DNA of 51,554 bases from a virus (IMGVR_UViG_2531839664_000034); one strand, 5' to 3'. Shown: positions 5,478 through 50,029, numbered from the stretch's first letter. Numbers and translations: made by a program. The notes: a model not told the origin generated them from the sequence alone.

Positions 5478-5494
5478 AAAGGGTAAAGTACTCC

Positions 5495-15820: not shown

Positions 15821-16016
15821 AGAACCTCTTTTCTAAATCAGTAACAATCAAAATAACTCGTAAATTTGGGTCAGGTAATGGGTCAGGTAACGATCGTACA
15901 ATGGAGAAAAAACGGAACCAAGCGGAAACAGAAGAAATTACATAATTAGTTGATTATAAACAATTAATAAAACAATTACGAACAAACCAAAACAATACAG
16001 AATGGACTTGCCTCAT

Positions 16017-31455: not shown

Positions 31456-32352
31456 ATGACGATTGCGAAGGATAGTTCGACTGATGAAATCATTCATGGA
31501 AATGATCTCCGTGGAATGGATGATTTTTACATTAAGACAACGAGTTTTGAATGCCCATATGAGCCTTGTAAAATTAAAGCCACACCTTGTAGTTTTACTA
31601 TGAGACATGTTAATCAATCATATTTTAGATATGGTGATAAACATAAGGATGGATGTGGTATTCATGATCCAAGATATAAAAACAATCATACTTCAAATGA
31701 CGAAAGAAAACATAATTCGCCACCTGCTCCGGTTATATCACTTTTAAAAATTGATGTGAAGCCAAGAGGTGGTGTTAAAAATGCCAGAAGTAGTAAAAAT
31801 GAAAATCACAAGGATGAAAAAAAAGCTAATGAACATCCTGTATCTTCATCAAGTATTAAGCCAGTCGTTGACTATTACATAAATAATAGCAATCATAATG
31901 AACAGCTATCAATCCCTCCATATGGCACGCGATCTTATAAAGATACGTTTCAACTTATTTTTTACAAAAACAACATACGTTATTACAAACCTGCAATTTA
32001 TTATGGTGTAGTCCAGTCTAATATTCGTCTGCATGAAGATTCAGATAAACATTGTATAACTTTCCTCGCAAGGGATAAGAAGACCCAAAAACCATTTACG
32101 CTTGAAATTGATGTTTCTGACTGGAATAAAAGTCAGAAGGATGTGTTTTGGAAAGAATATGAAAAGCAAAGGAAGGAAGCTGATAGGTATTATAAGGGAC
32201 TTAAAGATAAAAGGAATGCTAAAAAATACCTGACGGTTTTCTTTTTTGGGATGCCGGATGAAAATAATAAGTTTCTATTTAAGACAAACCACTTTAAATT
32301 AGTATATGTGGCTTTCTTGGGTAAATTTGAAAGCTCATATAATGATAGTAAT
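31456..32352 (+). pseudogene. Hypothetical Cys-cluster protein with (Glu-Pro)n linker, 5-prime part, interrupted by IS629
   Basis: ORF 31456..32355 takes its stop codon TGA from the first three bases of the IS629 inverted repeat (32353-32355). Confidence 0.6.
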
Positions 32353-32406
32353 TGAACCGCCCCGGAAATCCTGGAGACTAAACTCCCTGAGAAAGAGGTA
32401 AACAGG

Positions 32407-32733
32407 ATGACTAAAAATACTCGTTTTTCCCCCGAAGTCCGTCAGCGGGCGATTCGTATGGTTCTGGAAAGTCAGGATGAATATGACTCACAGTGGGCGG
32501 CAATTTGTTCCATTGCCCCAAAGATTGGCTGTACGCCGGAGACTCTGCGTGTCTGGGTTCGCCAGCATGAGCGGGATACCGGGGGCGGTGATGGTGGGCT
32601 CACCAGCGCTGAACGTCAGCGTCTGAAAGAGCTGGAACGTGAAAATCGTGAACTGCGCCGCAGTAACGATATCCTTCGCCAGGCTTCCGCTTATTTTGCG
32701 AAGGCGGAGTTCGACCGCCTCTGGAAAAAATGA
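32407..32733 (+). CDS. IS629-like OrfA
   Basis: 108 aa [22 protein letters not shown]... with leucine-zipper C-terminus. Confidence 0.85.
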
Positions 32734-33620
32734 TGCCACTGCTGGATAAGCTGCGTGAGCAGTACGGGGTCGGACCGGTATGCAGCGAACTGCATATTGC
32801 CCCGTCAACGTATTACCATTGTCAGCAACAGCGACATCATCCGGATAAACGCAGTGCCCGTGCGCAGCACGATGACTGGCTGAAGAGAGAGATACAGCGC
32901 GTATACGATGAAAATCACCAGGTATACGGTGTGCGTAAAGTCTGGCGTCAGTTGTTACGGGAAGGTATCAGAGTGGCCAGATGCACTGTGGCACGTCTCA
33001 TGGCAGTTATGGGACTTACCGGTGTTCTCCGGGGTAAAAAGGTCCGCACTACCGTCAGCCGGAAAGCCGTTGCCGCAGGCGACCGCGTAAACCGTCAGTT
33101 CGTGGCAGAACGTCCAGACCAGTTGTGGGTGGCTGATTTTACCTGGGTAAGCACATGGCAGGGCTTCGTTTATGTGGCGTTCATCATTGATGTGTTCGCC
33201 GGATACATCGTGGGATGGCGGGTCTCATCATCCATGGAAACGGCATTCGTGCTGGATGCACTGGAGCAGGCGTTGTGGGCCCGTCGGCCGTCCGGCACAA
33301 TCCACCACAGTGATAAAGGTTCTCAGTATGTATCGCTGGCCTACACGCAGCGGCTTAAGGAAGCCGGCTTACTGGCATCAACAGGGAGTACTGGTGACTC
33401 GTATGACAACGCGATGGCGGAGAGCATCAATGGCCTTTACAAAGCGGAGGTAATACACCGTAAGCGCTGGAAAAACCGTGCAGAAGTGGAACTGGCCACA
33501 CTAACGTGGGTGGACTGGTATAACAATCGACGATTGCTGGGAAGGCTGGGCCATACTCCTCCGGCAGAAGCAGAAAAAGCTTATTATGCTTCCATCGGAA
33601 ACAATGATCTGGCAGCCTGA
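32730..33620 (+). CDS. IS629-like OrfB transposase (DDE)
   Basis: 296 aa; DDE region (LWVADFTWV...HHSDKGSQY...[15 protein letters not shown]). Confidence 0.85.
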
Positions 33621-33662
33621 GTTCACAGATAAAACACTCTCCAGGAAACCCGGGGCGGTTCA

Positions 33663-34022
<360 letters not shown>

Positions 34023-34287
34023 TTTATGTTTTCTGTAAAAAAGCCCGTAGGTTTCAACTGCGGGCTGAATTTTCCCTTGATGCTGGTTTTGTCTTTTATC
34101 TAAAAAATGCCAGTCTTCACGTTGCTTGTTCCAGCATTAAAGATGTATGTGCTGACTTTTTCGCCTTTGAAAGAAACTGTCAGAGATTTAGTTTGTGAGT
34201 CTGCTCCACCTGCAAGCAGTCCCACAACGGGGATGAAAGAGGTTGCTTTGGACTGGCTGTTATACATAGTGTATGACCATTGCTCTT

Positions 34288-34424
34288 TGATCTTACCCAG
34301 CAATAGTGGACACGCGGCTAAGTGAGTAAACTCTCAGTCAGAGGTGACTCACATGACAAAAACAGTATCAACCAGTAAAAAACCCCGTAAACAGCATTCG
34401 CCTGAATTTCGCAGTGAAGCCCTG
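34288..34424 (+). mobile_element. IS3 left-end fragment (IRL plus first 24 codons of orfA), truncated by IS629 copy 2
   Basis: TGATCTTACCCAGCAATAGTGGACACGCGG... then MTKTVSTSKKPRKQHSPEFRSEAL (recalled IS3 InsE N-terminus) ends abruptly at the IS629 inverted repeat at 34425. Confidence 0.6.
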
Positions 34425-34466
34425 TGAACCGCCCCGGGTTTCCTGGAGAGTGTTTTATCTGTGAAC

Positions 34467-35357
34467 TCAGGCTGCCAGATCATTGTTTCCGATGGAAGCA
34501 TAATAAGCTTTTTCTGCTTCTGCCGGAGGAGTATGGCCCAGCCTTCCCAGCAATCGTCGATTGTTATACCAGTCCACCCACGTTAGTGTGGCCAGTTCCA
34601 CTTCTGCACGGTTTTTCCAGCGCTTACGGTGTATTACCTCCGCTTTGTAAAGGCCATTGATGCTCTCCGCCATCGCGTTGTCATACGAGTCACCAGTACT
34701 CCCTGTTGATGCCAGTAAGCCGGCTTCCTTAAGCCGCTGCGTGTAGGCCAGCGATACATACTGAGAACCTTTATCACTGTGGTGGATTGTGCCGGACGGC
34801 CGACGGGCCCACAACGCCTGCTCCAGTGCATCCAGCACGAATGCCGTTTCCATGGATGATGAGACCCGCCATCCCACGATGTATCCGGCGAACACATCAA
34901 TGATGAACGCCACATAAACGAAGCCCTGCCATGTGCTTACCCAGGTAAAATCAGCCACCCACAACTGGTCTGGACGTTCTGCCACGAACTGACGGTTTAC
35001 GCGGTCGCCTGCGGCAACGGCTTTCCGGCTGACGGTAGTGCGGACCTTTTTACCCCGGAGAACACCGGTAAGTCCCATAACTGCCATGAGACGTGCCACA
35101 GTGCATCTGGCCACTCTGATACCTTCCCGTAACAACTGACGCCAGACTTTACGCACACCGTATACCTGGTGATTTTCATCGTATACGCGCTGTATCTCTC
35201 TCTTCAGCCAGTCATCGTGCTGCGCACGGGCACTGCGTTTATCCGGATGATGTCGCTGTTGCTGACAATGGTAATACGTTGACGGGGCAATATGCAGTTC
35301 GCTGCATACCGGTCCGACCCCGTACTGCTCACGCAGCTTATCCAGCAGTGGCATCAT
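34467..35357 (-). CDS. IS629-like OrfB transposase
   Basis: Identical 296-aa translation to 32730..33620. Confidence 0.85.
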
Positions 35358-35680
35358 TTTTTCCAGAGGCGGTCGAACTCCGCCTTCGCAAAATAAGCGG
35401 AAGCCTGGCGAAGGATATCGTTACTGCGGCGCAGTTCACGATTTTCACGTTCCAGCTCTTTCAGACGCTGACGTTCAGCGCTGGTGAGCCCACCATCACC
35501 GCCCCCGGTATCCCGCTCATGCTGGCGAACCCAGACACGCAGAGTCTCCGGCGTACAGCCAATCTTTGGGGCAATGGAACAAATTGCCGCCCACTGTGAG
35601 TCATATTCATCCTGACTTTCCAGAACCATACGAATCGCCCGCTGACGGACTTCGGGGGAAAAACGAGTATTTTTAGTCAT
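35354..35680 (-). CDS. IS629-like OrfA
   Basis: Identical 108-aa translation to 32407..32733. Confidence 0.85.
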
Positions 35681-35806
35681 CCTGTTTACCTCTTTCTCAG
35701 GGAGTTTAGTCTCCAGGATTTCCGGGGCGGTTCAAACCGTTTGCGCAAAAACAAGCGTGGAGCACACATCCAAGCTTAGCGCGCACGGGGGAGGTGAAGG
35801 GCTTGT

Positions 35807-36100
35807 ATGTCCCAGAATTATGTTCAGACAGAGATGCCATCTAGGTACTGCCAGGCAGACGAAGAGTGGATTCAGCAGCAGTTACAGGGGCTGCCTCCGT
35901 CACTGAGACGGAAGGTCGCCCTGAAATATGCGGAGGTATACGAAATCACTTTTGACGCTGAGCCTGTTTCATTCCGCAAGGAGAACAGAGCAAGGCGCGA
36001 AGCAAACACAAGGCTCCGCTTGTTTGTGAGAAATCAGGGCAGGGCTTTACAGGGGTATACAACTCAGCCGCCCCTGGCAGGAATGCAATCGCGCTCCTGA
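35807..36100 (+). CDS. Hypothetical phage protein
   Basis: 97-aa ORF with GGAGGTGAAGG Shine-Dalgarno; first gene after the IS629 junction. Confidence 0.35.
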   Translation: MSQNYVQTEMPSRYCQADEEWIQQQLQGLPPSLRRKVALKYAEVYEITFDAEPVSFRKENRARREANTRLRLFVRNQGRALQGYTTQPPLAGMQSRS

Positions 36101-36529
36101 TTGTTTCGGGTTTGAAGGTACCCGAACAGAAGCAGGCTTAAAGGTGCCTGTTCAGGTTGGCAACCAACTGACCCAATTCCTCATATGTACTAGGTAAGTA
36201 GTACGTTTTTATGGGGAAGAGGGAAAGGGGGGTAAGGGGGGATTGGGTGTAGGGGCAGGAATAGGGTCTTTTCCAACAGGAGAGATCCATTGGTTAAGTA
36301 GATCACTGTCTTAAGGGCGCAATTTAAAAAAAACGCTCGTATCAGCAAGGTAGTACAAAGCGCCCAGGCGTTGAGAAACGAAAAGGGTTCTTCTTGGAAG
36401 AGTGATTTTTCAGAAGAGCTGAATCAGAAGGGGGGCTGGCAGCCTTTGGGGAGGCCACCAGCCATGTGAGGGGGAATCCATGAAAACCACATCACGAAAT
36501 TATTATCTCATCAGCACGGGAGCAGCACA

Positions 36530-38188
36530 ATGGAGCTGACGATCACGCCGAATTTTGCACAGGAACGAGCGCTAAACATGTTGCGCCGTGATTGGAAGGC
36601 AAACGACACCTTCATGGTGTATTCGCCAACCGGTAGCGGTAAAACGGGTTTGGCTGCCTTCATCGTTGCCGGGTTTGTCAGCCGTGGTATGCGCGTCCTG
36701 TTCTGTGCACCGTACACCATCCTGATCGGTCAGACGGCTAATCGGTTCGTGGAGTATGGATTACCGGGGGATGAAATCGGTTATATCTGGGCGGATCACC
36801 CGAACTACGATCCGAACCGGAAAATTCAGATTGCCAGCGCTGACACGCTTATTCGTCGTGTTTTTCCTGAAAATATCGATCTGCTGATTATCGACGAAGC
36901 GCACCTGCGTAAAAAACGCATCCTGAAGGATATCGAACGTCTGCGCGGCAAAGGCGTAAAGGTGATTGACCTGTCGGGTACTCCGTTTTCCCCGTTCCTG
37001 GGCAAATACTATGACCGACTGATTAAGCCGACCACAATCGGCGAGTTAATCCAGCGTGGCGATTTGAGTAAATACGAATTTTACGCGCCAACTAAGCCGG
37101 ATCTGAAAGGTGTTAAAACCACATCTTCGCTTGAGTACGGTCGGGATTACAACGAAACGCAGCTGGCTGAAATCATGTGCGGATCTACGCTGGTGGGCGA
37201 CATCGTACAGAACTGGCTGGAGAATGGTCGGGATCTACCTACCATCGCTTTCTGCGTCAACGTAGCCCACGCCAATTACCTGACAATCCAGTTTAACCTC
37301 GCAGGTGTTAACGCTGAGGTAATGACCGCAGACACTCCGGTAGATGAGCGCCAGACCATCATTCACCGCTTTGAAACTGGTGCAACGAAAATCATCGTTA
37401 GTGTGGGCGTGCTGGTGGCCGGCTTCGATAGTGACGTTCGTTGCATCATCTACGCCAGGCCAACAAAAAGCGAAATTCGCTGGTTGCAGGCACTCGGGCG
37501 TGGGCTGCGCACCGCACCGGGTAAAGAGTCCTGCCTCATCTTCGATCATAGCGGCACCGTGCACCGTCTGGGTTATCCGGATTCAATCGAGTACGACGAT
37601 CTTCCCGGTAAGTCTGACGGTATGGAGGAAAGCGCGCGCCGCGCAGTTGAGGAACGGGCCGAAAAACTGCCACATGAATGCCCTCAATGCCACTACATGA
37701 AGCCAGCTGGCGTCTATGTTTGCCCGAAATGTGGACACAAGCCGCTGCGAGGTGAAGACGTTGATACTGACACTAGCCGCAAACTTAATAAGCTGGGTAA
37801 AAATCAGCATCAGTCGACGAAGGCAGAGAAACAGTCCTGGTGGAGTCAGATCAAATTTTATCAGCGCCAGCGTGCTTCGCTGGGGCGTCCAGTCAGTGAT
37901 GGATGGTGTGCTCACACTTTCAGGGAGAAATTCGGTGAATGGCCTGATGGGTTGAGCAGTTTCCCGATGGAAATAAGCCCAGAGGTAAGTAACTACATCA
38001 AACACAAGCTGATTCGGTTTGCCAAAGGCCGTCAGCGGACGCAGAGAACTATAGAAAAATTGCAGGCAACGGTTCCTCTGTCTCAGGAACGAGGTGAGCG
38101 AAGCGAGATGCCAATAGGCACTGAGGCCTGGCGCATCATGCAAGCAAAGCAACAACTCCAGAAAAATATAAACAGTTTGAGTCAGTAA
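36530..38188 (+). CDS. Phage-type SF2 DEAD/DEAH-box helicase (replication module)
   Basis: SPTGSGKTG (Walker A), IIDEAH (DEAH box), SGTP, QALGRGLR; C-terminal CPQCH...CPKCGH zinc ribbon. Confidence 0.75.
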   Translation: MELTITPNFAQERALNMLRRDWKANDTFMVYSPTGSGKTGLAAFIVAGFVSRGMRVLFCAPYTILIGQTANRFVEYGLPGDEIGYIWADHPNYDPNRKIQIASADTLIRRVFPENIDLLIIDEAHLRKKRILKDIERLRGKGVKVIDLSGTPFSPFLGKYYDRLIKPTTIGELIQRGDLSKYEFYAPTKPDLKGVKTTSSLEYGRDYNETQLAEIMCGSTLVGDIVQNWLENGRDLPTIAFCVNVAHANYLTIQFNLAGVNAEVMTADTPVDERQTIIHRFETGATKIIVSVGVLVAGFDSDVRCIIYARPTKSEIRWLQALGRGLRTAPGKESCLIFDHSGTVHRLGYPDSIEYDDLPGKSDGMEESARRAVEERAEKLPHECPQCHYMKPAGVYVCPKCGHKPLRGEDVDTDTSRKLNKLGKNQHQSTKAEKQSWWSQIKFYQRQRASLGRPVSDGWCAHTFREKFGEWPDGLSSFPMEISPEVSNYIKHKLIRFAKGRQRTQRTIEKLQATVPLSQERGERSEMPIGTEAWRIMQAKQQLQKNINSLSQ

Positions 38189-38189
38189 G

Positions 38190-39158
38190 ATGAAAACAGC
38201 AGCTGCAGCGAAAGGCCGCTGGCCTGAAATATTAGAGCACTTCGGCTTGCCGCCGATAACAGGAAAAAATCACTTCAAGGGTGAATGCCCGGTATGCGGT
38301 GCACGTGGCAAGTTCCGAATTGATGACCGCGACGGTGCAGGAACGTGGATCTGTGTATGTGGTAGTGGCGATGGTATGAAACTTGTCACCCTGACACAGG
38401 CGAAGCCATTTAACGAGATTTGTACCGAAATAGACCGCCTGATCGGTAATGATTACCAACGGGTTAAAATTCCGGTAATCAGCAGCGCCACCAGCTTACG
38501 CAAACGGGTATTGAGCAAGTTTTCAAAACTGGAGGCACTGCGTGGTACATCCGGCGCAGCGTATCTTAATTCTCGTGGAATATTCAGTCTTCCTGCTGAG
38601 GCGATCCGGTTCAATGCCAGGCAGAGACACAACGGGAGTGTGTTCCAGTCCCTTTATTCACTTGCTACGGACGATAAAGGGGAGTTGTGCTATCTGCACC
38701 AGACTCTGCTTGATGGTGATAAAAAAGCAGATATCGGTAGCAGTGCAAAGCGCCTCAAATCCCTGCAGGAAGATAACTATTTGGATCACGCTTGTTCTGT
38801 AGCTATCCGCATGTTTCCTGTTGCTAGCACTCTGGGTATCGCCGAAGGCATCGAAACAGCGCTGTCAGCGCACCAGATTTATAACGTGAACACCTGGGCA
38901 ACCATTAACAGCGGCTTTATGAAAAAGTTCCGCGTACCAGCTGGTGTTCTGCACCTGATTATTTTTGCCGACCGTGACGAGAACAGCGCCACCGGGCTGG
39001 CTGCGGCTTGCGAATGTGCTCATGCCAATCTGATGGCAAAGAATGACCTGCAGCGCGTGAGCGTGTACTGGCCGGATCACGATGATTTCAACAATATGCT
39101 CCTGAACGGTGATCTGGTTCGAGAGCTGGTTTTCCATAAGAAAAAGGCGGTTGCGTAA
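38190..39158 (+). CDS. Primase-like protein with zinc-binding and Toprim-like regions
   Basis: CPVCGARGKFR...WICVCGSGDG zinc motif and acidic IIFADRDEN segment; translationally coupled to the helicase (stop-1nt-ATG). Confidence 0.55.
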   Translation: MKTAAAAKGRWPEILEHFGLPPITGKNHFKGECPVCGARGKFRIDDRDGAGTWICVCGSGDGMKLVTLTQAKPFNEICTEIDRLIGNDYQRVKIPVISSATSLRKRVLSKFSKLEALRGTSGAAYLNSRGIFSLPAEAIRFNARQRHNGSVFQSLYSLATDDKGELCYLHQTLLDGDKKADIGSSAKRLKSLQEDNYLDHACSVAIRMFPVASTLGIAEGIETALSAHQIYNVNTWATINSGFMKKFRVPAGVLHLIIFADRDENSATGLAAACECAHANLMAKNDLQRVSVYWPDHDDFNNMLLNGDLVRELVFHKKKAVA

Positions 39159-40018
39159 TGCGTACTGATAACAACGAACATAAAGCACTATTCACCATCC
39201 CGACGGCAGCGTACAGCTCCGCCCTCGCAAACATCAAGCCCCTGCCAGAGCAACGGAGAATCACCGGGCATAAGCAGACTGATGCTTATCTTTGGGTGCT
39301 GGAGGTTATCCGTCTGAATGAACCCGCACATCTGGATGCTGCTGAGGCTGCGCTGGTGAAAATTAAAATTTCCCCAAAAGAGGCCCAGGAACGCTATTCG
39401 CGTTATCTGCTGGCGAATGGTGTCGATCCTTTCCAGATTGCTTTCGGTACCATCGGTATGGATAACCCGGCACAGGCAATCAGAATTGCCCGGGAGAATA
39501 TCAAAAAAGCAGCATCAGTCAGGGCTACGTTTGGTAGCTATGAAGCAGCACTCGAAGATGTGGAAGCCGAGCGAGTGCTCAAGTCTTCCCAGAAATTTAT
39601 CGACGATCATCTCTGGGGCTGGACTGCAGCCGAGAAGAAAGCGGGCAGAATTGACGGCATCCGTATGAATGAAATTGATGATCAGCGTCGTGCATATGTT
39701 GATGGCTATCGTGATGTACTGCCAGAGCCTCATACATTGTCAGACGTAGTTCGTGAGTTTGTTTACTGGGACTGGCTCTACAGTGTTCGCCACACTGCAA
39801 CTAAAGAACAGGGCGATAAGTTTGGTTACTCTGAGCATCACGAATCGGTATATGACCGCGAGCGCTACCTTGAAAAATTGCTGATGACCATCAAACCGGT
39901 GACACGGGCTGAAGCTGTGGAGGTGTGTCGCTGGTTCCTGGCTAGTGGTAAGGGGGAGTACATGAAAGATGACGGCGCTGCAGTCATACTCAATCTGGTT
40001 GGGGAGTGTGAACAATGA
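39158..40018 (+). CDS. Hypothetical phage protein
   Basis: 286-aa ORF overlapping upstream stop (TAATG); no motif recognised. Confidence 0.45.
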   Translation: MRTDNNEHKALFTIPTAAYSSALANIKPLPEQRRITGHKQTDAYLWVLEVIRLNEPAHLDAAEAALVKIKISPKEAQERYSRYLLANGVDPFQIAFGTIGMDNPAQAIRIARENIKKAASVRATFGSYEAALEDVEAERVLKSSQKFIDDHLWGWTAAEKKAGRIDGIRMNEIDDQRRAYVDGYRDVLPEPHTLSDVVREFVYWDWLYSVRHTATKEQGDKFGYSEHHESVYDRERYLEKLLMTIKPVTRAEAVEVCRWFLASGKGEYMKDDGAAVILNLVGECEQ

Positions 40019-40248
40019 AGCCTGAGGCATCGCTAAAATACTTCCGCCATCAGTGCATCGCGGAAATCAATATAACGAAACAACGTAACGGTTCTCTGGG
40101 AACGATTTACCGGCGTTTTTATAACGGACATTTTCTGCCCGTAGACCAGGAAAGCGCACAGGTTCTTTCCACCCCAATGCGGCCATCCCAGCCGCGCAGA
40201 TACAGCAACAAACGAACTGACAGCAGTAAGATGGAGCGCTTCTTTTGA
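40015..40248 (+). CDS. Small hypothetical phage protein
   Basis: 77-aa ORF with overlapping start/stop (translational coupling) in an operon-like run. Confidence 0.3.
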   Translation: MKPEASLKYFRHQCIAEINITKQRNGSLGTIYRRFYNGHFLPVDQESAQVLSTPMRPSQPRRYSNKRTDSSKMERFF

Positions 40249-40502
40249 ACAACCAGACAATGACTTTTACCCCTGAACAATTGCGTAAACAGGCACAGGA
40301 AATGTTGCGACAGGCGGAACAACTGGAAAAAACAGGTGTAACAAAAGATGCCATTCGTCGGGATATGGTGCCGGCGCTCAGGGAACTGATGCAGGCGAAG
40401 CACCGCGCACAAAAAGCAGTGGATGAGATGGTGGATTGTGTGGCAGAACTGGAAACCAAAGTTGGTAAGTTTGAAAAACTGGTGCAGGAGGTACTGCGCT
40501 GA
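40245..40502 (+). CDS. Small coiled-coil phage protein
   Basis: 85-aa ORF, overlapping stops/starts on both sides. Confidence 0.35.
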   Translation: MNNQTMTFTPEQLRKQAQEMLRQAEQLEKTGVTKDAIRRDMVPALRELMQAKHRAQKAVDEMVDCVAELETKVGKFEKLVQEVLR

Positions 40503-40852
40503 TGCGTGATATGTACGAAGTTTTAGATCGTTGGGGGGCTTGGGCTGCAGCAGAAAATAGTGGTGTCGACTGGCAGTCGATAGCGGCAGGCTTCAAGGGG
40601 CTTCTATCACACGGTAAAAAGTCACGTCTCCAGTGCGATGATGATGAAGGAATTATGATTGATGGATGTGTGGCCCGGTTGCGGAAATATAAACCAGAAG
40701 AATATGAGCTGATCATTGCTCACTTTGTTATCGGGATTTCTCTCCGTACAATTGCAAAAAAGCGGAAGTGTTCAGATGGCACAATCAGAAAAGAACTACA
40801 AACAGCATTGGGGTTCGTTGATGGGATGCTATTTATACTTTCAGATAACTGA
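40502..40852 (+). CDS. Late-gene antiterminator Q (QuuD/YbcQ-like short form)
   Basis: 116 aa with ...LDRWGAWAA...IAAGFKGL...QCDDD...CSDGTIRKELQ..GMLF pattern recalled from the about 127-aa Q family of DLP12-like prophages. Confidence 0.6.
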   Translation: MRDMYEVLDRWGAWAAAENSGVDWQSIAAGFKGLLSHGKKSRLQCDDDEGIMIDGCVARLRKYKPEEYELIIAHFVIGISLRTIAKKRKCSDGTIRKELQTALGFVDGMLFILSDN

Positions 40853-40939
40853 ATTTTAATACTGTTAATTTAGTTATTTAGAATTGATGTGATTTAGGGT
40901 AAAATGCATTTAATTTCCTGGTTTTGTATGAGGTTCAGC

Positions 40940-41794
40940 ATGACTACATTTTTTACCCCATTACGTTATCCCGGTGGAAAAGGGAGGATGGGGCCTTGGT
41001 TATCAGAACTGCTGAGGTATAACGGAATTAGTGGTGGGTATTATGTGGAGCCATATGCTGGCGGCGCAGGAGCTGCATTGTATTTGCTAATGCATGGATA
41101 TGTAGATCATGTCATTATTAATGATTTGGATCCTGTTGTTTACTCATTTTGGTGGTCAGTGTTAAATGAGAATGATAAATTTATTTCATTGATAAATGAA
41201 ACAGAAGTAACAATGGATAATTGGTATAAGCAAAAAGATGTAATAAACAATTATACTAAATATGATATTTTATCTATTGGTTTTGCTACGTTTTTTCTCA
41301 ATCGAACCAATCGTTCTGGAATCTTATCAGGTGGGGTTATAGGAGGAAAAGAACAGAGTGGTAAATATAAGATTGATGCTAGGTATAATAAGAAGAAACT
41401 ATGTGAAAGAGTAAAAAAAATAGGTGGAATGAAAAAATTTATTGATCTTTATAATTTGGATGCCTGTGAGTTGATTGGTAGTATAAAAAATACACTACCA
41501 AAAAAATCTCTAATTTATCTTGATCCTCCATATTATGAAAAAGGTAGCCAGCTTTATAGAAATCATTATAAACCTCATGATCATAAATTAATTTCTGAAA
41601 AGGTTAAGGATATTTCCACTCCGATAATTGTTACATATGATAATTGTGAAGAAATCAGGAAGTTATATAAAGACGAAAAAATTGTGGAGTTTTCTTTACA
41701 TTACTCAACTCATTTGACAAGGCCAAGAGTTACAGAACTTATGGTATATAAAAATTTAAATATTCATAGCATTCCCTCTATGAAGAAGAAATGA
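40940..41794 (+). CDS. DNA N6-adenine methyltransferase, Dam-like (D12 class)
   Basis: N-terminal PLRYPGGKG (AdoMet-binding) and catalytic YLDPPY motifs; GAGG Shine-Dalgarno before ATG 40940 (track ORF starts 40904); strongly AT-rich. Confidence 0.7.
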   Translation: MTTFFTPLRYPGGKGRMGPWLSELLRYNGISGGYYVEPYAGGAGAALYLLMHGYVDHVIINDLDPVVYSFWWSVLNENDKFISLINETEVTMDNWYKQKDVINNYTKYDILSIGFATFFLNRTNRSGILSGGVIGGKEQSGKYKIDARYNKKKLCERVKKIGGMKKFIDLYNLDACELIGSIKNTLPKKSLIYLDPPYYEKGSQLYRNHYKPHDHKLISEKVKDISTPIIVTYDNCEEIRKLYKDEKIVEFSLHYSTHLTRPRVTELMVYKNLNIHSIPSMKKK

Positions 41795-41840
41795 AAACTG
41801 TACGCTGGACTAATTTATTAGTCCAGCGTGGTATATCATT

Positions 41841-43244
41841 TTAATCTTTCCAACAAGCCCGAACAAAACAACCTATATTGTCCCAAAAAACATTAATTGA
41901 GATATAATCTGGGTGATGTGTCTCTCTGTGAATTAATTTTTGTAAAGTTTCAATGTGCACAGTTCCTTGCTCGCCGCGAGTATAAGCTGATATTATATGG
42001 TGTTCTGAGTCAGTGATTAGATTATTTTTCAACATATGATCTGCGCTATTAGCAATATTTTTAGCTAAGGCTTTTTTATCTTGCAACTTGTTAATTGTTC
42101 TATATTCTTTATCACTTAACTCCAGCAGTGCCCGAAGAAGAAATGCAGTTGCAAGAGTTGTTTTTTTTACATCTAATTGCCTAAGTTCTGAGATTATAGT
42201 TCTTATTTTAGTCTCATCTTCAGGAATCGTAATTCCAGGCTTTCCTCTACCAAAAATTTTATTTCGCTCTGCTGGTATTTTTTTAGGTGTAACTCCTCTA
42301 CCTGCGTGTTTTTTTAGTAGTACAGGTGCGTCACTCTTACTATCTGATTGCGCATTATTGTTATCCACCTCAGATGGAGAGGAATATTTATTTGTTTCTT
42401 CTTTTTTATTATTTTCTTGTTCTGTGTCATCACTATTGTAAGCAAAATCATCTATTATTCCTGCATACTTTCTTACCGAGCAAAGATATTTCTTTGCATC
42501 GCTAGGATTAAAGACGGTGTTAACATCAACTATTTTTGAAGAAAAGTCGCTATTAATTTTTGAGGCCATTTTTATTATTTTTTCTTTTGAGAGTATTGGC
42601 TTCAATTTATCATTTTCCACTTCAAATCCTAACAATAGAAGATTATCTCTAGTAAAGAATCTGGCTACACTAGTGATTGGGAAATCATCATCTACATCAA
42701 TACCTTCTTGTTCAGCCCAACACATATATTGACCAGCTCTTTTATAATCAGTTGGATGTCCATTATTTAATAGATAAATTGTTCGCATATATGCAAACCA
42801 GTCATATTGACCAGCACCATTACGTGCTCCAGAATGCCTTGCTATTATCTCTTTAAATACTGCTTCAAAATTGTCACTTGATAAACAGTCAACAGTAGTA
42901 GGTATGTTGTCATGATATTTTTCTTTTATTTTTTTTATTTTCGGAATTAAATGTGGCTCCGGGCAACTATCTGGGTTATTTAATAGTTTTAAAGCTGTTA
43001 TTCGTCTATTACCATCTTTAACTACCCATTTACCTTCTGAGTGAGGCATAACCAATATGGGCATGGTTGTAAGTCCGTTTTCTGCAATATCTTCCATCAA
43101 TACAAGCATCTGGTTTTCTTGACGCAATATCCTCGAAATGCAGTTGTTTTGATCTCTACCTGCGCGGATTCTGGCATTTTCAGTATCGAGGAGGATATTT
43201 TGAATTGGAATGTCTATTTGCTGAGTGAAATCTTTACGAGCCAT
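41841..43244 (-). CDS. ParB/sulfiredoxin-fold (ParB-like nuclease domain) protein with acidic low-complexity linker
   Basis: N-terminal pattern IQNILLDTENARIR ... LMEDIAENGLTTMPILV ... WVVKDGNRRITALKLL (GxRR box); convergent with the methyltransferase, 46 bp between stops. Confidence 0.5.
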   Translation of the reverse strand: MARKDFTQQIDIPIQNILLDTENARIRAGRDQNNCISRILRQENQMLVLMEDIAENGLTTMPILVMPHSEGKWVVKDGNRRITALKLLNNPDSCPEPHLIPKIKKIKEKYHDNIPTTVDCLSSDNFEAVFKEIIARHSGARNGAGQYDWFAYMRTIYLLNNGHPTDYKRAGQYMCWAEQEGIDVDDDFPITSVARFFTRDNLLLLGFEVENDKLKPILSKEKIIKMASKINSDFSSKIVDVNTVFNPSDAKKYLCSVRKYAGIIDDFAYNSDDTEQENNKKEETNKYSSPSEVDNNNAQSDSKSDAPVLLKKHAGRGVTPKKIPAERNKIFGRGKPGITIPEDETKIRTIISELRQLDVKKTTLATAFLLRALLELSDKEYRTINKLQDKKALAKNIANSADHMLKNNLITDSEHHIISAYTRGEQGTVHIETLQKLIHRETHHPDYISINVFWDNIGCFVRACWKD

Positions 43245-43485
43245 ATAATATATCCTTGTTTTAAAATCAACCCATCGATTAATTTTACAAAATCATTAAC
43301 GCGTACGCAAAAACTATTGTATTGTGTTAAGGATAGTCGCTTCGCCACACAGCTTAAACCTGCCGCCGAGCGGGTTTTTTTGTGCCTGAAAAGTGGCGCA
43401 GTACGTTAAACGCGCTGGTGGTTGCGAATACCGGTCTTTCAGCTTGCTGGCTTTTTCGACAAGAGTTATTGGTGTGTCACGTTAA

Positions 43486-43878
43486 CCGGAAAAAGGAAAG
43501 TTTGAGAAACGCGATCTGGCACAGGCGGTTATTAATGCTGCCTACCTGGTGGCCTGTGCAGATGGTGAATGTGAGGCTTCCTAGAAAGCGAAGATCGAAC
43601 AGGTACTGCGTAATCAGCCTGCGCTGTCCGCGTTTACGTCAGAAATTAATGCGATTAGCGCAACCATTATCGGTCAGCTGGATACGAACTTTAAAATTGG
43701 TCGTCGTGCGGCGTTACGTGAGATCGAGGATGTGAAACACGATACGCGTGAAGCGGAAGATGTGCTGGATGTGGCGGTGGCCATTGCGGAGGCAGACGGC
43801 GAAATTGAGCCGGAAGAGCGCAAGGTGCTGGAAGAGATTGCCGGTGTTCTGGGTCTTCGTCTGGAGAATCACCTGTGA
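43486..43878 (+). pseudogene. TerB-like (tellurite-resistance TerB fold) gene remnant with in-frame TAG at 43582-43584 and no start codon
   Basis: Frame reads ...AVINAAYLVACADGECEAS*KAKIEQ...VAVAIAEADGEIEPEERKVLEEIAGVLGL, TerB-like ADGE...EE repeats; the ORF-track frames here (43382..43735, 43748..44035) are not the coding frame. Confidence 0.4.
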
Positions 43879-44006
43879 CGGTAAAACTGCGCCTGGCTGT
43901 GGCTGCACTCCTGCTGTTTCTGGTGGTGATGGTGGATTTCACCAGCAGAATCATGTCGGTGCTGGCGGATGGGGTGCTGGTCTGCGGCATTGTGGTATTG
44001 CTGTAG
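43875..44006 (+). CDS. Possible small hydrophobic peptide (43 codons)
   Basis: GTG start overlapping the TerB-like stop; encodes VTVKLRLAVAALLLFLVVMVDFTSRIMSVLADGVLVCGIVVLL; below the ORF-track size cutoff. Confidence 0.2.
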   Translation: MTVKLRLAVAALLLFLVVMVDFTSRIMSVLADGVLVCGIVVLL

Positions 44007-44207
44007 CCGGTGATAAAAAGAAACAGCCTGCATAATGCTTGATTTTTTTATTTGCTGTTTATTAAAAATACTACTGCATGGTGAATCCCCCTGTGCGGAG
44101 GGGCAATCAGCAACCAGGTATATGTGATAATCGCGGATTCAGGTGCTGATACTGAATTCACCGGGAGGCACCCGGCACCATGCAAGAAAAAGAATGTGCA
44201 TGCAAAA

Positions 44208-44235
44208 ATGCCCCTCTCCGGAGGGGCATTTTTTA
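44208..44235 (+). terminator. Strong rho-independent terminator (possible tR-prime-like late terminator)
   Basis: ATGCCCCTC-TCCG-GAGGGGCAT perfect hairpin followed by TTTTTT, about 210 bp upstream of the esterase gene. Confidence 0.65.
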
Positions 44236-44448
44236 TGGGTAAAAAATGCCCGAATGGGTTCGGGCAATAGCATGAGATACTGATATTGTTGTGTTGTTAT
44301 CGTGTGGATTTTAACCAGGGTTTATCAGGCTGCGCAACTGCGTGGCCTTCTTCATTTCTTGGGCTGTAGTCCCCGTGTGTCATTCAGGCTTCCGGACTAC
44401 AGCCCACTCCATATCTGATTTAATACACTATCCCGGCCGGGAGGAATA

Positions 44449-46302
44449 ATGACATTTAAACATTATGATGTTGTCAGGGCGGCGTCGCCGTCAGACCTTG
44501 CGGAAAAGCTGACACACAAACTGAAAGAGGGCTGGCAGCCGTTTGGTAGTCCGGTGGCCATAACCCCTTATACCCTGATGCAGGCGATTACAGCAGAAGG
44601 TGATGTGGTGGTCAGTGGTGCAACTGAGCCGGATTGGTACTACGTCATCGTACTGGCCGGGCAGTCCAATGCCATGGCTTACGGTGAAGGGCTTCCGCTG
44701 CCGGATTCATACGATGCTCCGGATCCGCGCATTAAACAGCTGGCGCGCCGCAGTACAGTGACGCCGGGTGGGGCTGCCTGCAGATATAACGATATTATTC
44801 CGGCCGACCACTGCCTGCATGATGTGCAGGATATGAGTACGCTGAATCATCCGAAGGCAGACCTGAGCAAAGGGCAGTACGGCTGTGTCGGCCAGGGGTT
44901 ACATATTGCCAAAAAACTGCTCCCGTATATCCCGAATAACGCGGGGATCCTGCTGGTACCATGCTGTCGTGGTGGTTCGGCATTTACCCTGGGCGCGGAG
45001 GGGACATTCAGTGCGGACACGGGGGCCAGCCAGGATTCGGCGCGCTGGGGTGTGGGTAAACCGTTATATCAGGACCTGATTGTGCGCACCAAAGCTGCAT
45101 TACAGAAGAACCAGAAAAATGTGTTGCTGGCGGTGTGCTGGATGCAGGGAGAGTTTGACATGAGCGCCGCCACCTACGCACAGCAACCTGCGCTGTTTAC
45201 AGCCATGCTGAAGCAGTTTCGTGCTGACCTCACTGTGTTTAACGCGCAGTGTCATGGTGGCAGTGCTGTAAATGTGCCGTGGATTTGTGGTGACACGACG
45301 TATTACTGGAAAAACACCTACGGCACGCAGTACAACACCATTTACGGGGCGTACAAAAACAGGGAGAGTGAGGGCGTTTATTTTGTGCCGTTCATGACAG
45401 ACGGTAACGGCGTCAATACCGCCACTAATGTGCCGGCAGAAGATCCAGATATTCCGGCATCAGGATATTACGGTGCGGCATCGAGAACGAATGGAAACCA
45501 GGTATCATCAAACCGCCCGACACATTTTAGTTCATGGGCGCGCAGGAGCATTATTTCGGATCGCCTGGCAACCGCTATTCTGAACGCAGCCGGGCGCACC
45601 TCAGCCTTCATCAGTGGTAAGGCACCGGAAATCAACCCCTCGCCCGGCGGCGATACGCCATCGGGGCCGTCTGATAGCGAAACATCCGTCCGCACAGTCT
45701 CCCTGCTGCCGGCAGACGGAGAGGCTGCTACGCAGGGCTGGACTATTAAAGATGGCGGAATTCAGCTGGCAGATGGTGTATTTAAGATCACCAAGCAGAG
45801 CAATAAAACCTGGTCCCTGGCGCATCCGGTGGATGACGCAATTACCCTGCTGACACAGGGCGGCAGACTGACCTGTAAGTTCCGCCTGTCAGGCGCACTG
45901 ACCAACAATCAGTTCGGGCTGGGGATTTATCTGTATACGGATGCTCCCGTTCCTGATGGTGTGGCGATGACGGGTACCGGTAATCCGTTCCTGATGTCGT
46001 ACTTCACTCAGACCACTGACGGCAGAGTGAATCTGATGCATCACAGGAAAGCCGGAAACACGAAGCTGGGGGAATTCGGGGGCTACAGTAACGACTGGCA
46101 GACGCTGGAGCTGGTGTTCACCGCCGGCAGTGCCACGGTTACTCCGAAACTGAATGGAGTGGCTGGCCCGGCATTCCAGGTTATAAAAGACAGTCTGACA
46201 CTGGGACTGAATGCGCTGACGCTGACGGATGTTACAAAAAATGCAGCGTATGGCGTTGAGATAGAAAGTCTGGTGCTGGAGATAAATGCACCGGCAGCAT
46301 AA
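44449..46302 (+). CDS. Prophage esterase resembling NanS-p (sialate O-acetylesterase-like)
   Basis: 617 aa, GGAGG Shine-Dalgarno; N-terminus MTFKHYDVVRAASPSDLAEKL and overall size/position between Q and holin recall NanS-p of lambdoid/Stx prophages; GQSN motif (LAGQSNAMAYGEG). Confidence 0.55.
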   Translation: MTFKHYDVVRAASPSDLAEKLTHKLKEGWQPFGSPVAITPYTLMQAITAEGDVVVSGATEPDWYYVIVLAGQSNAMAYGEGLPLPDSYDAPDPRIKQLARRSTVTPGGAACRYNDIIPADHCLHDVQDMSTLNHPKADLSKGQYGCVGQGLHIAKKLLPYIPNNAGILLVPCCRGGSAFTLGAEGTFSADTGASQDSARWGVGKPLYQDLIVRTKAALQKNQKNVLLAVCWMQGEFDMSAATYAQQPALFTAMLKQFRADLTVFNAQCHGGSAVNVPWICGDTTYYWKNTYGTQYNTIYGAYKNRESEGVYFVPFMTDGNGVNTATNVPAEDPDIPASGYYGAASRTNGNQVSSNRPTHFSSWARRSIISDRLATAILNAAGRTSAFISGKAPEINPSPGGDTPSGPSDSETSVRTVSLLPADGEAATQGWTIKDGGIQLADGVFKITKQSNKTWSLAHPVDDAITLLTQGGRLTCKFRLSGALTNNQFGLGIYLYTDAPVPDGVAMTGTGNPFLMSYFTQTTDGRVNLMHHRKAGNTKLGEFGGYSNDWQTLELVFTAGSATVTPKLNGVAGPAFQVIKDSLTLGLNALTLTDVTKNAAYGVEIESLVLEINAPAA

Positions 46303-46594
46303 TAAAAAAAGCCAGCGCCCACTCTGAAGGACGCTGGCTAAAACGGGTAGATGTACTTCACATGATACTTATATTTGGCAGTACATTTTCTGACAGACAG
46401 TGACGGATGTTGTCAAGATATTGTGTCATTTATAACCTGAATCAGGGGTTGGTCGGAATGTTATCTGGCATTTTTAGCAGAGCCTGAATGCCATAATCAC
46501 GGCTCCCGGAGTTGGCCGTCAGTGGGTGACACTGGCGGCTTTTTGTTTTCCTTTACTTTCATTTTCTGTCGGCGGTGACGGAGACATACATCAG

Positions 46595-46801
46595 ATGGAA
46601 AAAATCACAACGGGTGTGTCATACACCACGTCAGCGGTGGGGACGGGATACTGGCTACTGCAGTTGCTGGACAAAGTCTCTCCGTCCCTGTGGGTGGCAA
46701 TAGGTGTACTGGGGAGTCTGCTGTTTGGCCTGCTGACGTATCTGACAAACCTTTATTTCAAGATTAAAGAAGATAAGCGTAAGGCGGCGCGGGGAGAGTA
46801 A
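46595..46801 (+). CDS. Class I phage holin (S-like)
   Basis: [68 protein letters not shown]: hydrophobic helices and basic C-terminus; track ORF starts upstream at 46526 in same frame. Confidence 0.75.
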
Positions 46802-46805
46802 AGCG

Positions 46806-47150
46806 ATGAAGAAAAAATACGAACTGGTTGTTAAAGGGATAAATAATTACCCGGATAAGATTACTGTTACTGTGGCACTGGAAATTGGTGGGTATCCGTC
46901 ACTGTTGTTGCCAGATGTGGCGATTAGTCTTGACCGTACTGAAGGTGCCACGCTGGAGTTTTACGAAGCTGAGGCGAAAAAGCAGGCGAAGCAGTTTTTC
47001 ATGGATGTTGCTGCCGGGTTATGTGAAGGGGATGGTCCGTTGCCGGAAAAGCGGCCCATCATTTTAGAGGCGCAGGATGTGTTGATAACCTACAGAGGAA
47101 AACTACCGGGAATAATTACTGGTTCTCTGAAGACTCCACCGCTGGCCTGA
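46806..47150 (+). CDS. Hypothetical protein between holin and endolysin
   Basis: 114-aa ORF starting 5 bp after holin stop; no motif recognised. Confidence 0.4.
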   Translation: MKKKYELVVKGINNYPDKITVTVALEIGGYPSLLLPDVAISLDRTEGATLEFYEAEAKKQAKQFFMDVAAGLCEGDGPLPEKRPIILEAQDVLITYRGKLPGIITGSLKTPPLA

Positions 47151-47200
47151 AGACTTAATATATCCAGGGATGTGAAATCGATAAACCCTGATAAATATCC

Positions 47201-47734
47201 ATGAACGCAAAAATCAGATACGGCCTGTCGGCTGCCGTTCTGGCGCTGATTGGTGCAGGGGCGTCTGCGCCTGAAATCCTCGACCAGTTTCTTGACGAAA
47301 AAGAAGGTAACCACACCACGGCATACCGTGATGGTGCGGGTATCTGGACCATCTGCCGCGGTGCCATCCTGGTGGATGGTAAACCTGTCGTCCCGGGCAT
47401 GAAGTTGTCGAAGGAAAAATGCGACCAGGTTAACGCCATTGAACGTGATAAGGCGCTGGCATGGGTGGAGAAAAACATCAGAGTGCCACTGACCGAACCC
47501 CAGAAAGCGGGGATTGCGTCATTCTGTCCGTACAACATTGGCCCCGGTAAGTGTTTCCCGTCGACGTTTTACAGACGGATTAATGCTGGTGACCGCAGGG
47601 GAGCATGCGAGGCGATTCGCTGGTGGATTAAGGACGGTGGCAGAGACTGCCGTATTCGCTCAAACAACTGCTACGGTCAGGTCTCACGGCGTGACCAGGA
47701 GAGCGCGCTGGCGTGCTGGGGAATTGACAGATAA
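47201..47734 (+). CDS. SAR-type endolysin (lysozyme R, GH24-like)
   Basis: N-terminal signal-anchor-release segment (LSAAVLALIGAGASA) and lysozyme core; recalled as near-identical to R of 933W-type phages. Confidence 0.8.
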   Translation: MNAKIRYGLSAAVLALIGAGASAPEILDQFLDEKEGNHTTAYRDGAGIWTICRGAILVDGKPVVPGMKLSKEKCDQVNAIERDKALAWVEKNIRVPLTEPQKAGIASFCPYNIGPGKCFPSTFYRRINAGDRRGACEAIRWWIKDGGRDCRIRSNNCYGQVSRRDQESALACWGIDR

Positions 47735-48031
47735 GCAGAATATTTTGCTGAAAAATGCGGTTTGCTCACACGGGCGGATAACACGAAATCCTGCGAACTG
47801 GCAAAAACTAAGTGAATAAAAGTAAAACCCCGTTTGTTGGCCGCAAGCGGGGTTTTGTGTTTCCTGACTCCGGAAAAGTCAAAGGAGAAAGTGTGTTTGA
47901 TTTTAGCAAACTGATTCGGGAGATTCGAATGATGGCTGAAAAATTATCCACCTGGAAGTTCATCCTTATCTGGCTGGTGTTTGTGATTATGGCTTCCGGT
48001 TATTTCATTGGTCAGATACGCTGGTGGTGAA

Positions 48032-48526
48032 ATGAACCGCGTACTGTGCGTGGTCATCATTGCCCTGCTGGTGGCCTGTGGTGCGCTTAGTCTGGGGCTG
48101 AATCATTACCGTGATAACGCCATAACCTACAAAGAGCAGCGCGATAAAAAAGTCAGTGAGCTGGAGCTGGCAAATGCAACCATTACTGATATGCAGCAGC
48201 GCCAGCGTGATGTTGCTGCACTTGATGCCAGATACTCGAGGGAATTAGCCGATGCGAGAGCTGAAAATGAAACTCTGCGCGCTGATGTTGCCGCTGGTCG
48301 TAAGCGCCTGCGGATCAACGCCACCTGCCCCGGTACCGTGCGTGAAGCCACCGGCACCTCCGGCGTGGATAATGCAACCGGCCCCCGACTGGCAGACACC
48401 GCTGAACGGGATTATTTCATCCTCAGAGAACGATTGATGACAATGCAGAAGCAGGTGGAAGGGGCACAGGACTATATCCGCACTCAGTGTACTAAGCAGG
48501 CTTTTTATTATCCGGAGGATGTATGA
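48032..48526 (+). CDS. i-spanin Rz
   Basis: N-terminal TMD (VLCVVIIALLVACGALSL) then coiled coil ...NHYRDNAITYKEQRDK...; ATG at 48032 within track ORF 48008..48526. Confidence 0.7.
   Translation: MNRVLCVVIIALLVACGALSLGLNHYRDNAITYKEQRDKKVSELELANATITDMQQRQRDVAALDARYSRELADARAENETLRADVAAGRKRLRINATCPGTVREATGTSGVDNATGPRLADTAERDYFILRERLMTMQKQVEGAQDYIRTQCTKQAFYYPEDV
48267..48437 (+). CDS. o-spanin Rz1 (lipoprotein) embedded in Rz in +1 frame
   Basis: MKLCALMLPLVVSACGS lipobox LVVSAC followed by proline-rich segment; lies fully inside Rz. Confidence 0.6.
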   Translation: MKLCALMLPLVVSACGSTPPAPVPCVKPPAPPAWIMQPAPDWQTPLNGIISSSEND

Positions 48527-48747
48527 AGAAATTACAGGTAACGGTAAAACCTTTTCAGGGAACAATTCCGTTCCGTGTTTTGCAACATGGCCGTGTTCTG
48601 CTTGAAGAGGTGTTCAGAGGTAAATGCACTGAATGTTATTCACGAACATATGAAGTGAATGCCACGCATGAAGAATTCACCGTTGAGTGCGTGATGAATA
48701 CTGATAAATGCCGAATGGTATCCGCTGAATTACAGCCAGTGTGTTGA
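48523..48747 (+). CDS. Small Cys-rich hypothetical protein after Rz
   Basis: 74-aa ORF coupled to Rz stop (ATGA overlap); contains CTEC and ECVMNTDKC clusters. Confidence 0.35.
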   Translation: MKKLQVTVKPFQGTIPFRVLQHGRVLLEEVFRGKCTECYSRTYEVNATHEEFTVECVMNTDKCRMVSAELQPVC

Positions 48748-49115
48748 GCGACCTTATTATCCATGCGCGGTATTGTCGCCGTATTCCTGCATTAACAGAG
48801 ACCGCAGCCCGACAGGGAGACTCCTCTGCGAGAGTGTGCGGGGATAATCAAAAACGATACACACCGGGGTTTACCGCGTAAACGGAGCGCGGCGTTCTCC
48901 CCTCATGGTCGCCCATCCGGTGCGATGGTGGAAGAAACTGGAATCTGTTCAATAAAAAAACTGCCGTGTTGGAGTCACAGCAGTAATGTACTGATTGGGT
49001 AGAAGATTATTTTTGTTATGCTTTATTTTTATTCTATATGGCTGATTACTTCAATTCGGAACTAATACAGCTAATGTCTGTGATTTTTTATAAATTCAGC
49101 AATATAAAGAAATAG

Positions 49116-49343
49116 TTATATGAACAGCCATCGCAGAGCATACTGTGTATCATTCTTTTTTATAGTCAACTGACGGGCATATTTTATGTCTGCTGCCAGC
49201 TCCCGGCGGCAAGATTCAATGACCCACGCAGAAAAATTTTCTGAACCTTTCTGGTCAAGAGCGATGTTAATTTGTTCAATCATCTGGTTTGGAAATCGGA
49301 TGTTGCGGGTTGTTGTTCTGCGGGTCCGGTTTTTCGATGACAT
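49116..49343 (-). CDS. Small ribbon-helix-helix-like protein (YlcI/YnfO-like position)
   Basis: 75 aa, basic N-terminus; same position and strand as small RHH genes between lysis and terminase genes in DLP12-like prophages. Confidence 0.3.
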   Translation of the reverse strand: MSSKNRTRRTTTRNIRFPNQMIEQINIALDQKGSENFSAWVIESCRRELAADIKYARQLTIKKNDTQYALRWLFI

Positions 49344-49384
49344 TTTCTTTCCTCTGGTGACAAGTTATATGGCGAGGATTTTAC

Positions 49385-49846: not shown

Positions 49847-49966
49847 CTGGCTGCCCGGGCATTTTTTCGGTTTTTATCTTTATTATTCAGTTTGTTGTGC
49901 GAAAAAAATGTTAACTGGCTTTTTCAGCAAATGTTAACCAGGCAGCAGTTAACATTTGCGGCATGA
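49831..49966. repeat. Cluster of GTTAAC-containing palindromic repeats upstream of terminase small subunit (cos/pac-like region)
   Basis: CCAGTTAACATGTTAACTGG (49831-49850), ATGTTAACTGGC (49918-49929), AATGTTAACCAGGCAGCAGTTAACATT (49940-49966). Confidence 0.4.
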
Positions 49967-50029
49967 GACGCCGGGAAAAATGGGCTGAACCATACCCGGC
50001 TGAGTGCGTTATGGACCCGGGAGGAGGCT

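Follow-up and report, generated by a model that had tools for sequence, protein, structure and literature searches.

Evidence for an IS629-bounded deletion across an island and the early region of an effector-carrying prophage in Escherichia coli O121:H19

The window analysed here (the whole stretch of 51,554 nucleotides, IMGVR_UViG_2531839664_000034) was found to contain a complete IS629 located between the left end of an IS3 and the 3′ remnant of a cro-like prophage gene. The chromosomes of E. coli O121:H19 matched the region at 99.3-100% identity, and the window was assigned to the ypjA-ssrA region of this serotype, between ileY/ypjA and ssrA. The sequence supports an IS629-bounded deletion that removed the rest of the IS3 and the prophage early region and left no integrase, repressor, or att. 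It is very likely that IS3 was inserted into a bamE-like gene and that an IS629-mediated deletion then extended across the island and the prophage.

Results

Organisation of the locus

In the O121 genome RM8352, the locus was found to contain glaH, ileY, and ypjA followed by an island with two tyrosine recombinases, an IS600, hypotheticals, and a Pro-Glu-repeat protein. The island was followed by the truncated bamE-like gene, the IS3 fragment, IS629, a hypothetical, a helicase, a toprim primase, Q, and a methylase, and then by the lysis, terminase, head, and tail genes, nleL, espN, espK, a DinI-like gene, and ssrA. The tail/effector end of the prophage was found to adjoin ssrA, and the locus kept the gene order of O157, O55, and A16 on either side. 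This order suggests that two mobile elements formerly stood in tandem, an integrative mobilizable island followed by a lambdoid, effector-carrying prophage. The island would have measured at least 24 kb and would have contained tyrosine recombinases, the PE-repeat protein, the bamE-like lipoprotein, a relaxase, cargo, and its own integrase. Many insertion sequences were found at the locus, namely an IS600, an IS3, a pair of IS629 copies, and elements of the IS66 family.

The following features of the left part of the window and of the island are referred to below.

5495-7879, minus strand: iee (IS-excision enhancer; PrimPol and SF2 helicase), intact, 794 codons, with NCBIfam PrimPol and helicase matches
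31456-34022, plus strand: Pro-Glu repeat protein gene of the island, split by IS629 copy 1, with an intact 1314-nt homologue in RM8352
32353-33662, plus strand: IS629 copy 1, 1310 bp, with an AAT target duplication at 32350-32352 and 33663-33665

Positions 1-16016 were found to contain the end of a SpLE1-like element (junction at ~16017), which held IS66-family genes (377-5222), iee, and a P4-type integrase (14504-15820, minus strand). The element abuts just the 3′ part of the tRNA-Ile gene ileY, and no tRNA was found in the window by ARAGORN. Among the nine complete O121 genomes, the junction of this element with ileY was shared by 2015C-3107 only. In RM8352, the sole genome read at this locus among the other eight, ileY was intact and contained no element, so the iee element appears at differing sites between O121 strains. 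The IS66-family genes were found to form two tandem units, with an accessory tnpA (377-1108) and transposase ORFs at 1472-3028 and 3684-5222. The units were 72-73% identical over their repeated segments and therefore represent two different family members side by side.

The iee gene sits 27 kb upstream of the junction, on the SpLE1-like element. The O121:H19 iee primers Viee-F, Viee-R, iee-H1-F2, and iee-H1-R2 (PMC9397093) matched exactly and were found to bracket the ORF, with flanks at 5358-8729. O121:H19 has been described to carry iee together with multiple IS629 copies and many IS3-family copies (PMC9397093).

Within the island, an IS600 copy (~27898-29053, minus strand) was found after the two tyrosine-recombinase genes, splitting a large gene that O157, O55, and GmM066 carry undivided, as one 1632-nt 'DNA-binding protein' gene. 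This is thus a second place of damage in the island. The Pro-Glu repeat of the island gene was found to be encoded by a perfect hexanucleotide array, (GCCAGA)x22.7, at 33791-33926. The matched region varied from -30 to +84 bp in length across the complete O121 genomes, which probably represents variation in repeat number.

The IS3 fragment and the left endpoint

The left side of the joint was found to contain the following features.

34100-34287, minus strand: 3′ end of a bamE-like lipoprotein gene (SEN1984 family), interrupted by IS3, with the final 61 of its 100 codons left
34288-34424, plus strand: IS3 left end (left inverted repeat and 24 orfA codons), 137 bp, with the ATG at 34353
34425-35734, minus strand: IS629/IS1203-type element of the IS3 family, copy 2, 1310 bp, complete with both termini; orfA 35354-35680, orfB 34467-35357

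The similarity to intact bamE-like genes of other E. coli stopped exactly at 34287, where IS3 starts, which indicates that IS3 interrupted the bamE-like gene. The remnant is annotated in RM8352 as 'incomplete, missing N-terminus'. The IS3 fragment was identical at 137 of 137 positions to positions 1-137 of a full-length 1258-bp IS3 in two other genomes (L004 and L005). It contained the left inverted repeat and 5′ region followed by the 24 orfA codons (MTKTVSTSKKPRKQHSPEFRSEAL, running from 34353 to 34424); the right inverted repeat and the transposase genes of a complete IS3 were not present, and the remaining 1121 bp was absent. Intact IS3 continues with AAGCTTGCTGAACGC, whereas the window after IS629 reads AACCGTTTGCGC instead. 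The earlier note had described an IS3 left end with 24 orfA codons that stops at IS629 copy 2, which proved exact to the base (34424/34425), and its statement that no IS3 continuation lies past IS629 was confirmed by the phage sequence of the right flank. An intact IS3 inside the bamE-like gene, which would be the ancestral O121 form, was not found in the complete genomes.

The two IS629 copies

The two IS629 copies were found to be 100% identical, inverted, and 762 bp apart. The arms reported by the repeat finder were 1311 nt, compared with the 1310 bp of IS629, because one flanking base pairs by chance. The imperfect terminal inverted repeats starting with TGAACCGCCCCGG that are expected for IS629 were present, and the copy ends were TGAACCGCCCCGGAAATCC... 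and ...CCCGGGGCGGTTCA. The ORFs of 108 and 296 aa were found to overlap, and their proteins were matched by Pfam HTH_Tnp_1 and rve. In RM8352, copy 2 is annotated by RefSeq as 'IS3 family transposase, programmed frameshift', with the AL1L pseudoknot noted. IS629 was 96.4% identical to the O157 copy (IS1203 family in RefSeq) and 98.9% and 98.0% identical to the L004 and L005 copies, respectively.

Of the 3-4 bp target duplication expected for IS629, copy 1 contained a matching pair (AAT/AAT) whereas copy 2 was flanked by CTG (34422-34424) and AAC (35735-35737). The unmatched flanks, the exact junction at 35734/35735, and the inverted copy 1 with its intact duplication had all been read correctly beforehand, the last of these being borne out by both the sequence and the repeat search. 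The lack of a matching duplication at copy 2 argues for a rearrangement after insertion and leaves the identity of IS629 unaffected.

Copy 1 represents a simple insertion into the PE-repeat gene, specific to a sublineage. It was found in none of the 5,426 complete E. coli genomes, RM8352 with its intact PE-repeat gene being one of them, and it was present in the draft GCA_000194395.2 (contig AEZX02000027.1) and in several read-set assemblies. An exchange of flanks by inversion between copies 1 and 2 was considered and rejected, as in RM8352 copy 1 is missing and both sides are colinear.

The right endpoint and the prophage

The right side of the joint was found to contain the following features.

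35735-35843, plus strand: 3′ remnant of a cro-like (Cro/CI family) gene, 109 bp, last 36 of 93 codons
35807-36100, plus strand: 97-aa phage ORF, phrog_852 (E = 4e-41), the first intact prophage gene past the junction, conserved in KC-Dl-1 and STEC308
36530-40018, plus strand: prophage replication module, from RefSeq annotation and PHROG profile matches
36530-38188, plus strand: DEAD/DEAH helicase (PHROG helicase, E = 1e-102)
38190-39158, plus strand: toprim primase (PHROG primase, E = 7e-128)
39158-40018, plus strand: conserved hypothetical of the replication module (RefSeq annotation)

The similarity to intact prophages was found to begin exactly at 35735, within the cro-like gene. The first 76 bp (35735-35810) showed 92% identity to the Cro/CI gene of STEC306-308 in a sensitive search and alignment, and the remnant contained a 2-bp indel when compared with the nearest allele. 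Related prophages mostly matched from 35764/35765 onward, the preceding 30 bases being the 3′ end of a Cro/CI-family gene. The PHROG 409 transcriptional regulator profile spans residues 1-65 of the intact cro-like protein, so the DNA-binding (HTH) part of this protein was lost. Of an immunity region with a CI-type repressor, cro, and PR/OR, the last 36 of the 93 cro-like codons alone remained.

The replication block was 97% identical to that of phage phi467 and was followed by a Q-like antiterminator (PHROG). The replication, Q, lysis, terminase, head, and tail modules were found to be present (PHROG; RefSeq of RM8352), with several genes as pseudogenes. No integrase, excisionase, or repressor was annotated by RefSeq between the junction and ssrA in RM8352, and the search for a repeat of the ssrA 3′ end (att) in the window and in the RM8352 locus gave a chance 13-mer only. 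A consensus scan, which is weak evidence, found no sigma-70-like promoter at 35600-36600, from IS629 to the helicase gene. The earlier note had described a phage side that starts with replication genes and contains no integrase, repressor, or att; its second part agreed with the annotation and the att search whereas its first did not, the 109-bp cro-like remnant coming first.

Decay was also found further along the prophage (40057-51554; RM8352 loci), with a replicative DNA helicase gene reduced to a 192-nt fragment, a terB with an internal stop, a partial HNH endonuclease gene, and frameshifts in the portal, lom, and tail-fibre genes. By contrast with these, nleL, espN, and espK were intact effector genes beside ssrA.

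Undeleted relatives and the extent of the loss

At the same chromosomal position, O55:H7 CB9615 was found to contain ileY, ypjA, the island, a small gene, the prophage integrase, the xis-side genes, and an exonuclease. Its island runs from the PE-repeat gene and the bamE-like gene to a relaxase, cargo, hxsDBCA, and the island integrase. The undamaged islands of GmM066, NWU_3, and A16 contained the bamE-like gene followed by a hypothetical, the relaxase, variable cargo (hxsDBCA and defence-like genes), and the integrase. In A16, the island occupies the same ypjA-ssrA locus over ~24 kb, up to ssrA, with 14.8 kb from the bamE-like gene to ssrA. O55:H7 and O157 strain 493/89 were found to keep more of the island. 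Alignment to related genomes, which the earlier note had proposed as a check, thus gave an undeleted layout in CB9615, and the flanks of the joint ended at 34287 and 35735.

Judged by these layouts, the island lost 39 codons of the bamE-like gene and its ssrA-proximal half, with the relaxase, cargo, and island integrase. The prophage lost attL, int, xis, the early-left operon, the repressor, PR/OR, and the HTH part of cro. The loss may be put at ~20-25 kb, of which ~17.5 kb would be island and ~5.8 kb the stretch from int to the cro breakpoint (STEC308), a size extrapolated from other lineages whose island cargo differs. The extent had been given beforehand as the rest of IS3 and the prophage left arm; both of these were lost, but the loss was larger and included the bamE-like codons and half of the island.

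Distribution of the junction and the search for reciprocal junctions

The genome searches covered complete RefSeq genomes, and the O121 lineages L2-L4 (PMC8767318) were not among the matches. The junction of the IS3 fragment, IS629, and the prophage was identical in 9/9 complete O121 genomes carrying the region.

The closest match to the window is a draft contig (GCA_000194395.2), and an inverted pair of identical IS copies separated by 762 bp makes assembly difficult, so a false join over a collapsed IS629 repeat was considered. The same junction was found, however, in nine independently finished chromosomes. It is therefore not an assembly error, and the probability of such an artefact is close to nil. 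Nor is it a chance resemblance, the exact matches spanning 137 bp and 1310 bp.

The IS629 end followed by CTG and the IS3 continuation gave no contiguous match in the 5,426 complete E. coli genomes, O121 included, and no match in metagenome contigs. Five places at which this query appeared to be fully covered turned out to be either separate pieces that had been joined or a different element matched at 88%. In the same 5,426 genomes, no record covered 80% or more of a query made of the cro 5′ part, AAC, and the IS629 end; the cro 5′ allele itself was seen in six genomes only, all of them non-O121. For the part of the island that should follow IS3 on the right, no O121 genome was found among the best 60 of the 382 holders. 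Two apparent co-matches of IS3 and IS629 were examined and were found to be unrelated neighbouring elements, not this nested insertion.

IS629-mediated inversions are known in STEC generally. Inversions also occur among O121 chromosomes (PMC8767318), and an inversion or translocation between the inverted IS629 copies would have placed the rest of IS3 and the prophage left arm elsewhere in the chromosome. Against this stand the lack of a reciprocal junction in any O121 or other complete genome, the restriction of the cro 5′ allele to the six non-O121 genomes, and the colinearity with O157, O55, and A16 on both sides, and such an event is extremely improbable. The lack of reciprocal junctions in the 5,426 genomes indicates a deletion and not an inversion and, together with the island segment unseen in O121, indicates that the missing DNA is gone. 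The IS629-adjacent deletion of the prophage early region put forward in the earlier note is thus upheld by endpoints that coincide with the IS termini, by the presence of the joint in all of the complete O121 genomes with the region, and by the absence of reciprocal junctions.

Discussion

Route of the deletion

In the proposed sequence of events, IS3 would first have been inserted into the bamE-like gene. An IS629-mediated deletion would then have connected codon 58 of the cro-like gene in the prophage with IS3 position 137, perhaps in a single step, and would have left one complete IS629 at the joint. Both deletion ends are the intact termini of one IS629, which indicates an IS-dependent event over random illegitimate recombination.

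Three histories are equally compatible with the joint, namely (a) an insertion of IS629 into IS3 with rightward loss, (b) an insertion of IS629 into cro with leftward loss, and (c) the recombination of two copies. The order given in the earlier note, IS629 into IS3 followed by rightward loss, is compatible with the data as one of these three.

On plausibility, recombination between two direct copies is favoured as the route, with about an even chance of being correct. A second IS629 would have arisen nearby by local transposition, giving copies in the same orientation, one in IS3 (with a CTG duplication) and one in cro (with an AAC duplication). Homologous recombination would then have excised the interval, and the hybrid IS629 would have kept one flank from each copy. 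This route is favoured because copy-out-paste-in transposition regenerates the donor, so that no flank deletion is expected from it (bioRxiv 10.1101/2023.06.07.543989), because IS629 hops locally here, as seen from the identical copy 1 at 762 bp in a subset of assemblies, because only 21/47 of the O157 IS629 sites have matching duplications (PMC3271280), and because the described IEE-linked deletions remove the IS whereas IS629 is retained here. No genome with the two-copy intermediate, an intact IS3::IS629, or a cro::IS629 was found among the complete genomes, nor was the IS3::IS629 junction found in the metagenome contigs. The two IS629 copies of the window do not differ at any position, so they offer no signature by which a hybrid could be recognised.

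A one-ended event is a possible but less probable route. A single IS629 in IS3 or in cro would have deleted the interval through an aberrant strand transfer, possibly aided by IEE, with the IS kept. The deletion stops exactly at an intact IS terminus, an intact iee lies within the same window, and a 'sloppy strand transfer' model has been put forward (bioRxiv 10.1101/2023.06.07.543989). Deletions beside the IS, from a few nucleotides to >40,000, are also reported for IEE with transposase (PMC9943667, citing Kusumoto 2011). The route is nevertheless opposed by the same points that favour two copies, the flank deletions unexpected from copy-out-paste-in transposition and the IS loss in the described IEE-linked deletions, IS629 being complete here, and the sequence does not indicate on which side the original insertion stood.

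Stepwise decay, in which several independent deletions or recombinations (e.g. through IS3 or another IS and then IS629) would have made IS629 the last actor, is improbable. The crowding of the locus with IS600, IS3, two IS629, and IS66-family elements is in keeping with it, as is the gradual loss of the island in the O157 lineage, where O55:H7 and O157 strain 493/89 keep the relaxase region and typical O157:H7 is without it. On the other side, no O121 intermediate was found, and the nine complete genomes all contain the identical joint.

Consequences of the deletion

The IS629-mediated deletion would have left a prophage unable to excise, with its immunity and early-promoter region lost, fixed in place and keeping nleL, espN, and espK. 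From its gene content, it is very plausible that the prophage is cryptic and non-inducible, and this state would be over-determined. The portal, tail-fibre, lom, terB, and HNH pseudogenes indicate that the deletion would be sufficient for non-inducibility and would not be its only cause. The junction accounts for the lack of an integrase, a repressor, and an attachment site in the effector-carrying prophage of O121:H19, which is thus probably immobile and vertically inherited. The joints of IS3 position 137 with IS629 and of IS629 with cro provide a lineage-wide PCR or k-mer marker, and IS629 copy 1 provides a sublineage marker, usable in typing.

Comparison with known systems

No description of the O121 junction of the IS3 fragment, IS629, and cro was found in the literature searched. 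The event is of a known kind, textbook IS629-driven erosion of EHEC prophages, of which it is one further example. Its most interesting aspect is a parallel with O157 at the same border of island and prophage; otherwise it is of modest importance and raises no new question.

In O157:H7 strain 4276 (L003, 9278-10587), an IS629 was found at the border of island and prophage, in the same orientation as in O121 and again without a duplication (AGG/GAT). The same island lies beside a prophage at ssrA, IS629 abuts a fragment of another IS, and effectors are kept, espW and espM2 being retained by ssrA. The event is independent, the IS629 variant being 96.4% identical to the O121 copy. The left partner is an IS30 fragment just past an intact bamE-like gene, whereas in O121 it is an IS3 fragment within the bamE-like gene. 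The right endpoint lies in a tail-fibre gene, with nearly the whole prophage gone, whereas in O121 it lies in the cro-like gene.

This parallel could be a coincidence, given the abundance of IS629. It is tentatively suggested, as a rather unlikely reading, that, at the border by ssrA, IS629 repeatedly mediates the 'locking-in' of prophages that carry effectors. The O121 and O157 deletions would each have stripped both tandem elements of their mobility and immunity functions and spared the type III effectors. If this is true, and selection for domestication and not coincidence is the cause, it would represent a convergent IS-driven route by which effector loci are fixed in EHEC lineages.

In O157, matching duplications were described at 21/47 IS629 sites, and 62% of the sites were in prophages or prophage-like elements (Rump 2011, PMC3271280). 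IS629 has been linked with deletions in EHEC O157:H7 (Ooka 2009 and Kusumoto 2011, as cited in PMC9943667). The O121 joint shares with these cases the IS type, the preference for prophages, the iee-positive host, and a complete IS bordering a truncated element with non-matching 3-bp flanks. It differs in the serotype and lineage (O121:H19), in the site, in the nesting of IS629 in an IS3 fragment, and in a deletion that spans two tandem mobile elements.

The IEE-promoted excision described by Kusumoto 2011 and Calvo 2023 (PMC9943667), and seen in the O121 lacZ::IS600 reversion (PMC9397093), is alike in combining an IS3-family element and an intact iee in one genome with a large deletion from the IS end. 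In the window, iee was found to be present and intact, and the joints were IS termini, with no removal of the IS and no microhomology joint. In IEE-promoted excision, the IS is removed and a microhomology joint is left, whereas here IS629 is whole with both termini.
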